Below are positions 10,422 to 63,409 of a stretch of 64,000 bases of DNA, piece by piece (position 1 is the first letter of the stretch; each line of letters begins with the position of its first letter). The DNA is taken from the NCBI GenBank assembly GCA_041663445.1, contig JBAYMR010000005.1, positions 996 through 64,995 on the forward strand, read 5' to 3'. The position numbers and the translations under genes are program-made. The DNA is from Candidatus Micrarchaeia archaeon. Lineage in GTDB: Archaea; Micrarchaeota; Micrarchaeia; Anstonellales; Anstonellaceae. The notes under the pieces were generated by a model. It saw nothing but the letters and a program-made list of their open reading frames with translations, ran no database searches and was not told the origin of the DNA.

Positions 10422-10518
10422 CGAATTAATTCTATGTTAGTTATACTTAACATAGATTTATAACGATTCTGGAAGCCCTGCCCGTGCGGAAAGGAATAAA
10501 AGTTTCGCCCCCCCCCCA

Positions 10519-11235
10519 ATGGATATGCAGCATTGTTTTCGCGGGCAGGAGGCAAATGAGTTGAGCTCTTGCTCAACTGCTCGCCCCCTACTCGGCCAAG
10601 GGGCGACTGAATATCTTGTCCTACTCGCAGTCGTACTAATCGTTGCACTTGTGTCAGTCGCGCTGCTTGGCTTTATGCCGGGAATGGCGTCGGATGCGCA
10701 GATGACACAGTCGCAGATATACTGGTCGAGCGCAAGCCCGATTGCTGTGAGCGAGATGGCGGCGAGATACAGCTCGGGTTGGGGGGCAGCTGTCATTTCA
10801 ATGAAGATGAAGAACCAGGGCGCATACCCAATAAGGATAACGAAGCTGATTGGCGGAAGCAAGTGTATGGCAACTGGAATGTACTGCGATTCAGGCAGAT
10901 GCGGCATAGATGGATACCATAATCTCAGCGACTACTACTACATTGGGGCTGGAGATGAAATAGTCATTGGCAGTTATTTTGGGGGGCAATACAAGTATGG
11001 GGCATCCCTGATTAGTTTAGATGCGCCCGGCAGCACAAGTTGCAATGCAACGGGAAGCTATCCATGGTATTTGTATGGGGCAAAAACCGTGTGCCAGAAC
11101 TCGAACTCAACACCAGGCACGCTGCAGATAGACAATTTTGGATTCGAGTACATCCAATACATGGAGGGGCAGCAAATAACGAAAAGGGAGATTGGAAACA
11201 AGCCGCTTGTCGTGAAATGCATTGAGCCGGACTAG
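10519..11235 (+). CDS. archaeal type IV pilin-like protein (class III signal peptide)
   Basis: LLGQGATEYLVLLAVVLIVALV matches the prepilin-peptidase site plus hydrophobic helix. The true start may be internal. Confidence 0.6.
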   Translation: MDMQHCFRGQEANELSSCSTARPLLGQGATEYLVLLAVVLIVALVSVALLGFMPGMASDAQMTQSQIYWSSASPIAVSEMAARYSSGWGAAVISMKMKNQGAYPIRITKLIGGSKCMATGMYCDSGRCGIDGYHNLSDYYYIGAGDEIVIGSYFGGQYKYGASLISLDAPGSTSCNATGSYPWYLYGAKTVCQNSNSTPGTLQIDNFGFEYIQYMEGQQITKREIGNKPLVVKCIEPD

Positions 11236-17795: not shown

Positions 17796-17871
17796 AAGGA
17801 GAAAGTGGGCCCGACGATGGAGCGCGGCAGCGCGACAGATTTTGTGCAACAGCACAAAACAAAGGGCACAC
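17796..17871 (-). repeat. duplicate of the tRNA 3' end with acceptor-mimic fold
   Basis: The 22-mer AAGGAGAAAGTGGGCCCGACGA occurs at 17796-17817 and 17875-17896 (plus strand). On the minus strand the copy is preceded by GTGTGCCC (pairs with GGGCCCAC, one mismatch) and hairpin TTTTGTGC-TGTT-GCACAAAA. Confidence 0.6.
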
Positions 17872-44272: not shown

Positions 44273-44380
44273 AGCCCCATCGTCCAGTGGTCAAGGATAC
44301 GAGGCTCTGACGAACCGGATCTTGCCCGCCTTTCGGGGCGGAGATACCTCGGGACATCGGTTCGAATCCGATTGGGGCTA
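44273..44380 (+). tRNA. tRNA-Gln(CUG) with a 35-nt canonical intron
   Basis: AGCCCCA TC GTCC AGTGGTCAA GGAT A CGAGG CTCTGA [intron] A CCTCG GGAC ATCGG TTCGAAT CCGAT TGGGGCT A. Has the A1:U72 pair typical of archaeal tRNA-Gln. Bulge-helix-bulge geometry: CTCT pairs with GGAG, flanked by 3-nt bulges. Confidence 0.85.
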
Positions 44381-44403: not shown

Positions 44404-44449
44404 GCCCCAATTCTCGCCACCCTTCGGGTGACGATCCGATTGGGGCTAC
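44404..44449 (+). repeat. tRNA-Gln 3'-end copy folded as a minihelix (unit 1)
   Basis: GCCCCAAT (44404-44411) pairs with ATTGGGGC (44439-44446). It encloses hairpin GCCACCC-TTC-GGGTGAC. ATCCGATTGGGGCTAC is identical to the tRNA from T-loop position 59 to 2 nt past the discriminator base. Confidence 0.6.
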
Positions 44450-44477: not shown

Positions 44478-44515
44478 GCCCCAATTCCCGCGGGGCTCGG
44501 CTGGATTGGGGCTAT
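44478..44515 (+). repeat. tRNA-Gln 3'-end copy folded as a minihelix (unit 2)
   Basis: GCCCCAAT (44478-44485) pairs with ATTGGGGC (44505-44512) and is followed by a T-rich tract. A collapsed third unit, GCCCAAATCGGGGC, lies at 44534-44547. Confidence 0.55.
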
Positions 44516-47552: not shown

Positions 47553-48362
47553 ATGGACATGGACAAACTTCTTTGCATGCCGCGCCCGAAAAGGGGGAGC
47601 CACAAGGGGCAGAACGGCGTGGTGCTCATAATCGGCGGGAGCGGGACATACCATGGCGCGCCCGTGCTGGCTGCGCGCGCAGCCGTCAGGTTTTGCGACC
47701 TGGTTTACTTCTTTTCCAGCCCTGAAAACCAGTCCGTGGTCAGGAAAATGAAATTCTCCACGGCAAACGTCATCTGCGTGCCGAAAAGCAAATTCAGTTT
47801 CGCGCTTGCGCACGCCACTTGCGTGCTGGTGGGGAACGGGATGGACACGGGCGCTGCCACGCGCGCAATGGCATCCCGCGTGCTGAAAAGCGGCAAGCGC
47901 TGCGTAATTGATGCTGCAGCCTTGCGCGTGCTGCCAGTGAAACTTCTGCACAAGGGCGTAATTTTGACGCCGCACATGCGGGAGTTTGCGGCTGCATTCG
48001 GCTGCGAGGCAGATGAGGGGAATGTGAAAAGGATGGCGGAAAAATACGGCTGCACCATACTTCTCAAAGGGGAGCGCGATTCCGTTGCCGCGCCGGGAAA
48101 GTTTGCAAGGGTGAAGGGCGGCAATGCGGGCATGACAAAAGGCGGCACGGGAGACGTGCTTGCAGGCCTGTGCGCTGCGCTGTTTTCGCGATGCGATGAC
48201 CCGATGCGCGCGGCATACACGGCTTCGGCGCTGAACAAGCGGGCGGGGGAGCTGCTTTTCAAGCGATACAAATACAACTTCTCATCCGAGGATTTGGCGG
48301 ACGGGCTTGCCTGCGCAGCCATCTTTTTGCAGGGCAAAAAGCGGGCGGCCCGTGCGCCTTAG
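47553..48362 (+). CDS. nnrD: ADP-dependent NAD(P)H-hydrate dehydratase (YjeF C-terminal type)
   Basis: GSHKGQNGVVLIIGGS...YHGAPVLAA and GGTGDVLAG motifs. Confidence 0.85.
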   Translation: MDMDKLLCMPRPKRGSHKGQNGVVLIIGGSGTYHGAPVLAARAAVRFCDLVYFFSSPENQSVVRKMKFSTANVICVPKSKFSFALAHATCVLVGNGMDTGAATRAMASRVLKSGKRCVIDAAALRVLPVKLLHKGVILTPHMREFAAAFGCEADEGNVKRMAEKYGCTILLKGERDSVAAPGKFARVKGGNAGMTKGGTGDVLAGLCAALFSRCDDPMRAAYTASALNKRAGELLFKRYKYNFSSEDLADGLACAAIFLQGKKRAARAP

Positions 48363-52551: not shown

Positions 52552-52654
52552 TTTTCGCCTCTTGACTGCGTCTAATTTGAGTGAGGGGTTTAAATAGGCT
52601 GCTCATTTCGTGCAGCGGGAAAAAATGCGCATTTTGCAGTGCCAGCGCCGTGCC

Positions 52655-53936: not shown

Positions 53937-54512
53937 CTATATCGTTTCCGCGATTTTCTGGCGCAAGAGAAGCTCAGCCTCCTGCGAGGGCATGTCGGAT
54001 TCCTGCCCGGCCTTGAAGGGGCCGAACCTTTCCCTGTTCATGCCGACGTATTCCTGCACTTCCTTCGTGAACCTCACGCGCTGGACATCTGGCTTTTCCG
54101 GCGCGGCGGCGGCTTTCTGCCCGTCGCCGGCATTCTCCTTTTTCCTGGACTCGAAGCGGGAAAGCAGGGAATCCAGCTTCCCGTTCTCCTCCTGCACGAT
54201 GCCCCGGAAGCGGTCGTACACGTCGTACTCCTCCCGCGTCATTTCCTCCACCTTGGCATCCTGCCCGCCGCTCCGAATCACGCGGAACAGCAGCTTCTGC
54301 TGCCGTATGAGCACGATTTCGCGGATTGTTGCAGCCGCGTTCTCGAACTCGCGCATCTGGAGCACGGAGCGGTTGGACTCCATCTCCGAGAATTTCGAAG
54401 ACAGGAATGCCTGCACAGACGGATAGAAATCATCGGGGAGCTTCCCAAGCCCTGGCTGCGCCTTCTCTTCCCGCGCAAAATCGCGCAGGCTCTTGTAGGT
54501 CAAATCAGCCAT
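53937..54512 (-). CDS. GINS subunit (Gins51/Psf-like)
   Basis: YKSLRDFAREEK...LPDDFY...IREIVLIRQQKLL follows the archaeal GINS A-domain pattern. This is a moderate call. Confidence 0.55.
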   Translation of the reverse strand: MADLTYKSLRDFAREEKAQPGLGKLPDDFYPSVQAFLSSKFSEMESNRSVLQMREFENAAATIREIVLIRQQKLLFRVIRSGGQDAKVEEMTREEYDVYDRFRGIVQEENGKLDSLLSRFESRKKENAGDGQKAAAAPEKPDVQRVRFTKEVQEYVGMNRERFGPFKAGQESDMPSQEAELLLRQKIAETI

Positions 54513-54578
54513 GCTCGCATCCCGTTGCAGTTGCAGCCGTCTAGGGAGGCTGCGCTACAGTTCCAGTTCAAAAGGTAT

Positions 54579-54939
54579 AAAAAACAACCTCTTGTGTTGT
54601 TTTTTAGATTTGGAAGTGGAGGCGCACTTCCAAACAGAGGACAAATTTCCAGAGAAATTTGTCCGCATATGGAAATCCGATAGGATTTACATATACAATG
54701 AAAAACTTCCAGAGAAGTTTTTCAGCAGTGGAATTATAGAAATTCCACTACAATAAAAACCAGAGCGTAGCGATGGTTTTTAGAAGCCGGGCGAAGTTCA
54801 GCCGTGATGCCCCCACGCATGAGGCGCGGTTTTTTAGCATTGGAACGGGTGGATTCCATTCCAACCGGAAAAATGCGCGCCAACGCGCATTTTATAAACA
54901 ATTGGGGTCATTAAAAGCCAGCTCTATTCTGAGCTTGGC
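54579..54939. repeat. array of about ten consecutive, sequence-diverse, near-perfect hairpins in an AT-rich intergenic region
   Basis: Stems are 9-12 bp and loops 4-7 nt, except one 11-nt loop. Hairpin spans: 54579-605, 54609-634, 54639-664, 54667-694, 54699-724, 54727-749, 54754-782, 54813-829, 54840-864, 54870-893, 54917-939. Confidence 0.8.
54891..54898 (+). promoter_or_regulatory. TATA box (TTTATAAA) upstream of aIF5A
   Basis: Lies about 60 nt upstream of the TTG start at 54957. The GGTGAT Shine-Dalgarno-like site is at 54948-54953. Confidence 0.4.
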
Positions 54940-54956
54940 ATTGGAAAGGTGATTTC

Positions 54957-55346
54957 TTGAGCAAGATATTCTCATCAGCAAAGGAACTGAAGGAAGGAAA
55001 GTACGTCATAATAGAGGACATCCCTTGCAGGATTGTCAACATAGACTCGTCAAAGCCCGGGAAGCACGGCGCCGCGAAGATGCGCGTGACCGGCATCGGC
55101 GTGTTCGACAGCCAGAAAAAGATGCTTCTCGTCCCGTCCGACGCAGACGTGGAAGTGCCAATCATCGAGAGGCAGACAGCGCAGGTGGTGGCAGTGAACG
55201 GCAACACCGCGCAGCTCATGGACACCACGACTTACGAGGTGTTCGAGCTCTCCATCCCGGAGGAGATAATGAAGGACGCTGCAGCCGGGAAAGAGGCGGA
55301 CCTCATGTGCGCCATGGACCGCAAGGTAATTACAAGAATACACTAA
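54957..55346 (+). CDS. eif5a: translation initiation factor 5A
   Basis: The hypusine loop STSKPGKHG is present as DSSKPGKHGAAK. 129 aa. TTG start preceded by AGGTGAT. Confidence 0.9.
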   Translation: MSKIFSSAKELKEGKYVIIEDIPCRIVNIDSSKPGKHGAAKMRVTGIGVFDSQKKMLLVPSDADVEVPIIERQTAQVVAVNGNTAQLMDTTTYEVFELSIPEEIMKDAAAGKEADLMCAMDRKVITRIH

Positions 55347-63269: not shown

Positions 63270-63409
63270 GTTCGCAGCAAGCCGCCCTATTTTTCGGCGC
63301 ACCGAAAAATGGACATCTTGTGCGTTGCGACGCACAAGACCGTCCGCTGGGACGGGATTCGCCCGCCCTGAACACTACACACTGGCCATTTTCGCGTGGC
63401 AGATTCTCC

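Follow-up and report, generated by a model that had tools for sequence, protein, structure and literature searches.

The intergenic spacer between the divergent genes for GINS and aIF5A in a Candidatus Micrarchaeia (DPANN) archaeon (contig JBAYMR010000005.1 of assembly GCA_041663445.1) contains an array of about ten hairpins, whose anatomy, evolution, and possible role are considered here. The window, that is, the whole stretch of DNA analyzed, is 64,000 nt long, and coordinates are window positions unless a related locus is named. The spacer measures 444 nt and has a GC content of 45%, compared with ~57% for the window, in agreement with an initial annotation that had described an AT-rich region in GC-rich DNA. 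The divergence of the flanking genes, with GINS on the minus strand and aIF5A on the plus strand, had also been read correctly. According to the gene calls, GINS heads the operon GINS-L44e-S27e-aIF2alpha-Nop10-PAC2, and aIF5A heads the operon aIF5A-S24e-S27ae-Rce1-like-Kae1/TsaD. Both operons look highly expressed. The following elements frame the spacer:

53937-54512, minus strand: GINS (Gins51-type) gene, an open reading frame (ORF) with Pfam Gins51_C, 100% identical to a Candidatus Micrarchaeia protein
54561-54583, minus strand: conserved GINS core promoter, TTCCAGTTCAAAAGGTATAAAAA on the plus strand, which corresponds to a TTTTTATA box plus 15 nt on the minus strand
54957-55346, plus strand: aIF5A gene with a TTG start and the Shine-Dalgarno sequence AGGTGAT at 54948-54954

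For comparison, we gathered 63 related loci via the GINS protein (cited by L-numbers), 22 of which are close relatives at 77-90% GINS identity. Together with the window, these loci make up the 409 kb that were searched. The divergent arrangement of GINS and aIF5A is kept in those of the 22 close relatives whose contigs extend far enough upstream. Between the two conserved promoter elements, the spacer consists of a variable number of ~55 nt modules with two hairpins each. Two hairpin types, A and B, alternate in the window and in at least 20 relatives, with an A-to-A spacing of 51-61 nt. Type A has the form (G)ATAAAAA(A), GC stem, loop, GC stem, TTTTT(T)AG, which places T5-7 on both strands; its stem is 9-13 bp long including the A:T extension, and its loop is 3-11 nt. 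Type B has the form AG(A)-AGTNGR...loop...YCNACT, with a conserved stem base and a variable top.

In the window, 7 of the 16 distinct perfect hairpins found in the whole 64 kb (stem of at least 9, loop of 3-12) lie within 54578-54893, a stretch of 316 nt. By comparison, 1,000 dinucleotide-preserving shuffles of 54560-54900 yielded a mean of 0.03 such hairpins. Folding z-scores were -10.4 for plus-strand RNA, -11.1 for minus-strand RNA, and -12.6 for DNA. These results confirm that the hairpin array is real and that its enrichment is far beyond chance. All eight hairpins quoted in the initial annotation are present in the spacer as written, and the imperfect hairpins H8 and H9 bring the total to about ten. 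H1 through H7 are separated by linkers of 2-4 nt. The hairpins are as follows:

54578-54606: H1, type A, 11 bp stem, 7 nt loop, TAAAAAACAAC-ctcttgt-GTTGTTTTTTA; homologous alleles in L023 and L027
54609-54634: H2, type B, 10 bp stem, 6 nt loop, TTTGGAAGTG-gaggcg-CACTTCCAAA; related alleles in L028, L029, and L036
54639-54664: H3, A-like, 11 bp stem, 4 nt loop, GGACAAATTTC-caga-GAAATTTGTCC
54667-54694: H4, B-like, 12 bp stem with one mismatch, 4 nt loop, ATATGGAAATCC-gata-GGATTTACATAT
54699-54724: H5, type A, 11 bp stem, 4 nt loop, TGAAAAACTTC-caga-GAAGTTTTTCA; allele in L022, TGAAAAATTTC-caga-GAAATTTTTCA
54727-54749: H6, type B, 9 bp stem, 5 nt loop, AGTGGAATT-ataga-AATTCCACT; allele in L022, ATTGGAAT...ATTCCAAT
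54754-54782: H7, type A, 9 bp stem, 11 nt loop, TAAAAACCA-gagcgtagcga-TGGTTTTTA
54783-54837 (fold ~54783-54833): H8, degenerate GC-rich module, imperfect, ending in GCGCGGTTTTTTAG, an orphan type A 3' arm
54840-54864: H9, type B, TTGGAACGG-gtggatt-CCATTCCAA, with one C.A mismatch on the plus strand
54870-54893 (feature to 54898), plus strand: H10, A-type palindrome, 10 bp stem, 4 nt loop, AAAATGCGCG-ccaa-CGCGCATTTT

The array thus reads A-B (H1, H2), A'-B' (H3, H4), A-B (H5, H6), A plus a degenerate module (H7, H8), half-A plus B (H9), and the promoter palindrome H10, and it carries four T5-6 runs on the plus strand and four on the minus strand. A GC stem with a short loop and at least five T residues directly 3' is found in H1, H5, H7, and H10, as well as in 35 distinct type A alleles of the relatives, and it is present on both strands. 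H3 and H5 are paralogs that have the CAGA loop in common and differ at three fully compensated positions, and an intermediate form occurs in L022. The 29-mer of H7, TAAAAACCAGAGCGTAGCGATGGTTTTTA, is identical, loop included, in the window, in L028 (twice), and in L038, and L001 differs from it at the last base only. The 3' arm of H8 matches ...CGCGGTTTTTTAG of alleles in L038, L033, and L003 and doubles as the outer arm of inverted repeat I1, which has H9 at its core. Counterparts of H3 and H4 are seen even in the distant locus L059, which contains the similar hairpins AGACAAATTTT-cgc-AAAAATTTGTCT and a TGGAAATTC hairpin, respectively.

The array is no assembly artifact, since an independent ENA assembly from another sample (L064) has an identical 444-nt spacer. 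It does break short-read assemblies, because a Logan assembly of the same strain (L065) ends inside it, its position 1 corresponding to ~54667 of the window, directly after H3.

The TATA boxes of both GINS and aIF5A belong to the array, each being part of one of its two outermost A-type palindromes. On the GINS side, the A-arm of H1 is the GINS TATA box on the minus strand, and the first type A hairpin of an array has its A-run in common with this box. The GINS core promoter is kept across all close relatives as TTCC(A/G)GTTCAAAAGGTATAAAAA adjoining GINS; it can be seen as TTTCCnnTTnnnAAAGKATAAAAA down to ~50% GINS identity and lies ~35-65 nt from the GINS start throughout. On the other side, the T-arm of H10 continues into the aIF5A TATA box TTTTATAAA. 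The conserved element here is GCGCATTTTATAAACAA, the aIF5A TATA box, which is usually the 3' arm of a palindrome AAAATGCGCG-N4-CGCGCATTTT. H10 is kept with loop variants in L002, L003, L006, L024, L028, L035, and L060, and in L001, L030, L027, and L039 its 5' arm is lost and GCGCATTTTATAAACAA is retained.

Apart from the A/T runs and AGTNGR, the hairpin stems have no recognition sequence in common. The GGAA/TTCC core to which the initial annotation had drawn attention is indeed found in several stems, and it is the window variant of the type B stem base, which appears here as AGTGGAA, TTTGGAA, TATGGAA, and TTGGAA and in most relatives as AGTTGGC, AGTCGAAC, or AGTGGGC. Type B positions T3 and G5 are invariant together with their partners. 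The conserved stem bases lie 16-24 nt apart, and this variable half-site distance argues against a fixed-geometry dimer on duplex DNA; any recognition of type B is more likely to involve the folded hairpin. Tandem Repeats Finder detected no repeats in L028, L022, or the window. What the modules have in common is limited to junctions and hairpin geometry, so their periodicity had to come from parsing the junction motifs.

Several known element classes were tried and set aside. A C/D-box small RNA in the GC-rich island at 54783-54830 was considered on account of a C box-like GTGATGC, which by eye is accompanied by neither a D box nor a C'/D' arrangement. An integron attC array was dismissed on an informal judgment: the units are too short (26-30 nt), cassette ORFs are lacking, and no integrase was observed. 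Clustered regularly interspaced short palindromic repeats were ruled out by the lack of a constant repeat. A sigma-70 promoter and terminator scan was uninformative, the organism being an archaeon.

The stems covary strongly among genomes. Across the 26 distinct type A alleles, two-sided changes affected 7 of the 12 pairs in the arms (42 cells), a value reached by none of 500 shuffles; 90.7% of cells were paired, compared with 46-60% after sliding the partners, and one was a G.U cell. Type B arms behaved similarly: 5 of 7 pairs changed on both sides among 23 distinct alleles (33 cells; 0 of 500 shuffles), and 91.9% of cells were paired, compared with 13-46% after sliding, and three were G.U cells. 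Both strands of the array fold equally well. Together with the near-pure Watson-Crick covariation, this equal folding points away from an RNA made from one strand, and the pattern fits a two-strand signal, a DNA-level structure, or templated palindrome correction. Imperfect pairs, assessed by eye and too few to settle the strand of action, favored the plus strand in one case and the minus strand in three.

The hairpin block itself is not conserved, and the number of modules ranges from 0 to ~6:

0 modules: L002, L031, L035, L060, L026
1 module: L003, L027, L039, L005
2-3 modules: L001, L006, L007/L032, L023, L024, L030, L034, L036, L038
4 modules: L022, L028, L029, L033
~6 modules: window

Turnover is fast. 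L003 and L038, whose GINS genes are 97.1% identical at the nucleotide level, have no unit in common. L024 and L033 (GINS 95.6%) have three units in common, with the L033 array extended at both ends, and L028 differs from L029 (GINS 94.7%) by a single extra promoter-proximal module. Among genomes whose GINS identity is 88% or less, hairpin alleles reappear in shuffled order.

Despite this turnover, the feature is tied to the GINS operon promoter, and in the sequence available it is no dispersed repeat. A search of the 409 kb for A-first hairpins with a stem of at least 8 returned 50, of which 43, counting the aIF5A promoter palindrome, belong to the GINS-aIF5A spacer. Five of the remainder are a conserved palindrome plus T-run after the aIF2alpha stop, and two are at unrelated sites (L024 and L062). 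Matches to ATAAAAA...TTTTTAG in the spacer have uniform polarity. A+B units also stand upstream of GINS in the distant loci L040 (62% GINS identity) and L059 (47%), where the neighboring gene differs; L059 has five AT-rich hairpins, among them the two that resemble H3 and H4.

The spacer between the array and the aIF5A promoter is an insertion hotspot in relatives. One or two pilin-like genes on the GINS strand are inserted in L006, L033, L034, and L036. L027 and L034 have, on the aIF5A strand, a gene for a membrane protein of 211-235 aa, to which L023 and L038 contain homologous sequence, and L031 has ~300 nt of unrelated extra sequence between the array position and the aIF5A promoter. Coordinates of insertions are:

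L006, 902-1540: spacer insertion
L034, 745-2717: spacer insertion
L027, 1485-2120: spacer insertion

An "empty pilin cassette" model, in which a module is what is left of a lost cassette of type B hairpin, pilin gene, and type A hairpin, was not supported, because the array-side pilin-like gene of L006 does not begin with a B-like hairpin and because the sequence after the L006 pilin stop occurs in L002 as well, a locus without a pilin-like gene. The array is, in sum, a fast-evolving, dispensable cluster of terminator-shaped palindromes between two promoters.

The form of type A cannot be told apart from that of bidirectional intrinsic terminators. A scan of viral contigs with the type A pattern gave one match, ATAAAAAAGCACC-tacg-GGTGCTTTTTTAG in phage contig L066, where it is flanked by two convergent ORFs and immediately follows a sigma-factor-like gene. 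A viral or plasmid source of the units was accordingly not supported, as this match is an ordinary terminator-shaped phage hairpin and the other pattern gave no match. In the archaeal genome itself, palindrome plus T-run signals similar to type A follow the aIF2alpha stop (AAAATGCGCATTTTTT) and the LemA stop. The former, GCAAAATGCGCATTTTTTCC, lies at ~52615-52640 on the minus strand of the window, between the aIF2alpha stop and the Nop10 TATA box (TATTTAAA), and resembles the aIF5A promoter palindrome AAAATGCGCG...CGCGCATTTT. Five relatives retain it at ~+1915 relative to the GINS start: L010 and L035 have TGAAAAAATGC-agcg-GCATTTTTTCA, whereas L003, L037, and L038 have a form with a shorter stem, TGAAAAAAT-accgcagc-ATTTTTTCA. 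The initial annotation had excluded terminators on the grounds that the flanking genes diverge. The divergence holds, but the exclusion was too strong: half of the hairpins are shaped exactly like bidirectional intrinsic terminators, and several relatives have a pilin-like gene, co-directional with GINS, immediately upstream of the array. In L006, L033, L034, and L036, the array sits between the stop codon of such a gene and the GINS TATA box, and in L059 a co-directional gene is likewise found upstream of the array.

Our preferred reading, which we hold tentatively, is that the array is a locus-specific cluster of palindromic units, similar to a bacterial interspersed mosaic element (BIME), whose T-tracts on both strands block transcription between strong divergent operons. 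Archaeal terminators are U4-U7 tracts, and more tracts give higher efficiency (PMC8716108). In Haloferax, a subset of termination sites (about a third) is preceded by hairpins, and a single hairpin put to the test caused termination in vivo (PMC7237163). Bacterial hairpin clusters have been reported as joint termination units (PMC8355165). Repeated T-tracts in the array would thus provide the archaeal termination signal, strengthened by hairpins that can fold on either strand, and the spacer would act as a two-way barrier against upstream-antisense and read-through transcripts from the two strong operons. In relatives, the same barrier would stand between the inserted pilin-like genes and the GINS promoter. 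Whole modules would be gained, lost, and reshuffled by recombination or slippage at the A-run, T-run, and AGAAGT junctions, in the manner of BIMEs and of repetitive extragenic palindromic (REP) elements. Because the array holds four T5-6 runs per strand, we rate a two-way barrier as the best single explanation, and we infer termination and insulation as the function of an array whose anatomy, covariation, locus restriction, and turnover are described above and whose missing origin features are described below.

Several observations weigh against such a barrier. Archaeal termination in its known form has no need of hairpins (PMC8716108). No gene in the window runs into the array, as both neighbors point away from it, and five or six modules would seem to exceed the apparent need of any barrier. 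Some syntenic close relatives have no modules, and the function is therefore not essential. Hairpin-plus-T5 signals number 11 in the 64 kb, 5 of them in the array; their rarity elsewhere indicates that the genome does not generally use such terminators. Type B hairpins have no T-tract behind them, so termination leaves this type unexplained. Finally, templated quasi-palindrome correction could produce "compensated" perfect palindromes with no need for selection.

The same correction process is part of a reading in which the array is a selfish or neutral palindromic minisatellite, consisting of duplicative or mobile double-hairpin modules at a permissive site with no host function, where template switching would keep the palindromes perfect. 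The variation from 0 to ~6 copies among syntenic relatives, the lack of a common unit in L003 and L038, the one-module difference between L028 and L029, the recurrence of alleles in shuffled order, the insertion hotspot in the spacer, and the existence of other ~55 nt double-hairpin modules (the T-first element at 2554-2602 and the hairpin pairs in the 5' coding regions of pilin-like genes, described below) all speak for it. We consider it possible though somewhat unlikely, given that the A/B modules occur at no other locus in the 409 kb, unlike dispersed REP or miniature inverted-repeat transposable element (MITE) families, that their polarity relative to GINS is constant, and that A+B units are found upstream of GINS even in L040 and L059. 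The identity of the 29-mer of H7, including its loop, across diverged genomes also suggests constraint or exchange over drift. Constancy of position upstream of the GINS operon promoter, whatever the neighboring gene, would also be expected of sites for structure-specific binding or extrusion at the DNA level, at which a protein reads the stem bases or cruciforms absorb negative supercoils, tuning GINS and aIF5A. The protein-binding palindromes proposed in the initial annotation survive in this form, as palindromes recognized as structures. Such sites would account for the invariant type B stem-base positions despite the variable half-site distance, the near-pure Watson-Crick covariation, the DNA fold z-score of -12.6, the embedding of both TATA boxes in the outermost palindromes, and the B-like hairpins at the 5' ends of pilin-like genes. 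Close relatives can dispense with the array, however, and its stems and loops are highly diverse; we regard this explanation as unlikely. Also at the DNA level, and quite unlikely in our estimation, the array may be a device or by-product peculiar to the strongly negatively supercoiled zone that separates highly expressed divergent operons. One version would have stacked AT-based cruciforms or protein-recognized hairpins buffer supercoiling or gate the embedded TATA boxes. In another, the modules would be ~55 nt double-hairpin "nano-elements," undescribed tiny site-specific mobile or duplicative modules of DPANN archaea, possibly related to the hairpin pairs of the pilin-like 5' regions and to the T-first double hairpin found in a type B loop. 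An RNA-level explanation would take the units to be tandem tiny RNA genes encoding hairpin RNAs of ~30-55 nt, or a single multi-hairpin non-coding RNA, with the T-rich arm of type A (TTTTTTATC, GINS strand) serving as TATA box and the next T-run as terminator. Internal units do repeat the GINS TATA-like TTTTTTAT(C/A) in GINS orientation; the GC-rich stem that precedes this sequence resembles the GC-rich position of the B recognition element in promoters of this genome; the distance from TATA to the next A-run is ~25 nt; and the structure is strong, with covarying stems. We nevertheless regard it as improbable. Rfam gave no match to the array at the gathering score and, even at E ≤ 10, only chance-level matches below 17 bits. 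There is no strand preference and G.U pairs are nearly absent, which is unusual for selected RNA helices; the content turns over completely between near-identical strains; and the promoters would face each other across type B hairpins ~25 bp long.

The leading hypothesis of the initial annotation, which had noted a resemblance to the origin recognition box (ORB) in two of the hairpins, was that the array is a chromosomal origin of replication or an element for DNA unwinding beside a replication gene. This reading is highly improbable. In its favor are an AT-rich intergenic region between divergent genes, the adjoining GINS gene, the presence of TGGAA/TTCCA in several dyads, and an Orc1/Cdc6 gene 5.5 kb from GINS in the distant relative L017. 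The ORB-like dyad itself did not hold up: TTCCAGAGAA is the stem top plus CAGA loop of two paralogous hairpins, and TGGAA is the local variant of the type B stem base AGTNGR. With up to three mismatches, the ORB core TTCCAGTGGAAAC has 19 matches in the window compared with 15.4 expected, so it is not enriched; the single match in the region is the GINS core promoter, outside the hairpins, and no ORB or mini-ORB consensus is repeated. The hairpins are absent from the syntenic L002, L031, L035, L060, and L026 and differ wholly between strains whose GINS genes are 97% identical. Neither scanning the window for Walker-A motifs nor querying it by tblastn with an Orc1 fragment from Micrarchaeota revealed orc1/cdc6, whose absence had been noted earlier, and no Orc1/Cdc6 gene lies within ~-62 kb or +19 kb of the array (the window plus 7-10 kb beyond each end). 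On either side of the region the GC skew has positive values; it dips slightly at 45-55 kb and never changes sign, in a window that at 64 kb is too short for this measure. All AT-rich sequence is contained within hairpins, and there is therefore no long unstructured AT-rich stretch free for unwinding. A query with the Orc1 fragment of L017, aimed at the corresponding locus in close relatives, gave only three short partial proteins and did not place the true origin, for which reason a small residual probability stays with this reading. In L017 (a Micrarchaeota locus at 50% GINS identity), the Orc1/Cdc6 gene occupies 3-698 on the minus strand, and it has in common with its divergent neighbor a promoter region of ~70 nt containing a single bidirectional TTTTATAA box. 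A region of this length leaves no room there for a classical ORB-flanked origin.

Hairpins of other kinds were noted outside the spacer. A T-first double hairpin at 2554-2602 has the structure CTTTTTCGC-agca-GCGAAAAAG gggtcc CTTTTTGCC-acg-GGCAAAAAG, and a close relative of it in L034 (~2810-2870) has entered a type B hairpin at the loop, splitting GTTGAAC...GTTCAAC. It looks like a tiny MITE-like mobile palindromic element. Further single or paired T-first hairpins are located at 48323-48341, 17840-17859, and 63289-63339. Pilin-like genes (class III signal peptide, QGATEYLVLLAVVLIVALVSVALLGF) contain two or three hairpins in their 5' coding regions:

10500-10700 of the window: pilin-like 5' hairpin region (gene ~10519-11235, plus strand)
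L003, 6560-6760: pilin-like 5' hairpin region
L034, 4870-5070: pilin-like 5' hairpin region
L036, 1-200: pilin-like 5' hairpin region

The first of these hairpins is B-like (AGTYGAGS-tctk-SCTCRACT), and in another the QGA(T) codons form the 3' arm. Two QGA motifs flank the hairpins at three of the four loci (L003, L034, and L036, the window being the exception), an arrangement that looks like the insertion of a ~55 nt module accompanied by a duplication. Directly upstream of the pilin-like gene start in the window, at 10507-10517, is a run of ten C residues (CGCCCCCCCCCCAATGG), which could be a phase-variable tract.

One further observation concerns an intron-containing tRNA at 44273-44380, which was detected by Rfam and escaped ARAGORN, a program that reported no tRNA anywhere in the window. 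Behind this tRNA, its 3' end, GATTGGGGCTAC, occurs twice more, at 44438-44449 and 44504-44515, each time in a small hairpin. They look like stacked remnants of attachment (att) sites from elements integrated into the tRNA gene.

To our knowledge, very little is known about the non-coding DNA of DPANN archaea. Their genomes are small and tightly packed, so a maintained hairpin block of 300 nt between core operons is conspicuous. If two-way barriers are what the array provides, some archaea use stacked bacterial-style hairpin-plus-U-tract signals as promoter insulators, which would bear on how archaeal termination signals vary between phyla. If the units are instead selfish double-hairpin modules, they would represent an archaeal counterpart of REP/BIME elements. 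In practical terms, a false origin candidate is removed, and the module content of the spacer could be used as a fine-scale strain marker.

The array can be compared with several known systems. It is like an archaeal oriC, in which ORB or mini-ORB repeats flank an AT-rich unwinding element, usually next to orc1/cdc6, in being AT-rich, in adjoining a replication gene, and in its TGGAA dyads. Its half-sites are everted (TGGAA...TTCCA), however, in contrast to the TTCCA-N-TGGAA of oriC, and there is no ORB consensus. Mycobacterial interspersed repetitive units (MIRUs) are intergenic minisatellites, or variable-number tandem repeats (VNTRs), with strain-variable copy number. The array resembles MIRU-type VNTRs in its tandem intergenic units of ~50-60 nt and its strain-dependent copy number, but its units, which have only junctions and hairpin geometry in common, are too divergent for Tandem Repeats Finder.

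Bidirectional intrinsic terminators have the A-tract, GC hairpin, T-tract form of type A. The array differs from them in its archaeal host, where T-tracts alone are the known signal (PMC8716108), in the stacking of up to ~6 units between divergent promoters in alternation with a second hairpin class, and in the fact that its outermost units double as TATA-box carriers. Adjacent hairpins or U-tracts also occur together in hairpin-cluster termination units (Gupta and Pal 2021, PMC8355165) and at multiple archaeal termination sites (PMC8716108, PMC7237163). The reported hairpin clusters lie downstream of stop codons and usually comprise two hairpins, whereas the array places about ten between two promoters.

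With REP elements and BIMEs, the array has in common the tandem arrangement of short imperfect palindromes, two alternating types, conserved junctions, strain-variable copy number, and stems that stay complementary while their sequence varies. BIMEs function in transcript 3'-end formation or attenuation and in gyrase binding, roles that resemble those proposed here. Enterobacterial REPs are dispersed in hundreds of copies and are mobilized by REP-associated tyrosine transposases (RAYTs), whereas the A/B modules were found at one locus, with constant polarity, in 409 kb (64 kb of this genome). Because the window has no gene upstream of the array and no dispersed copies were found, the array is no strict member of either the terminator or the BIME/REP family; it resembles stacked intrinsic terminators in form and BIME/REP elements in architecture and dynamics.

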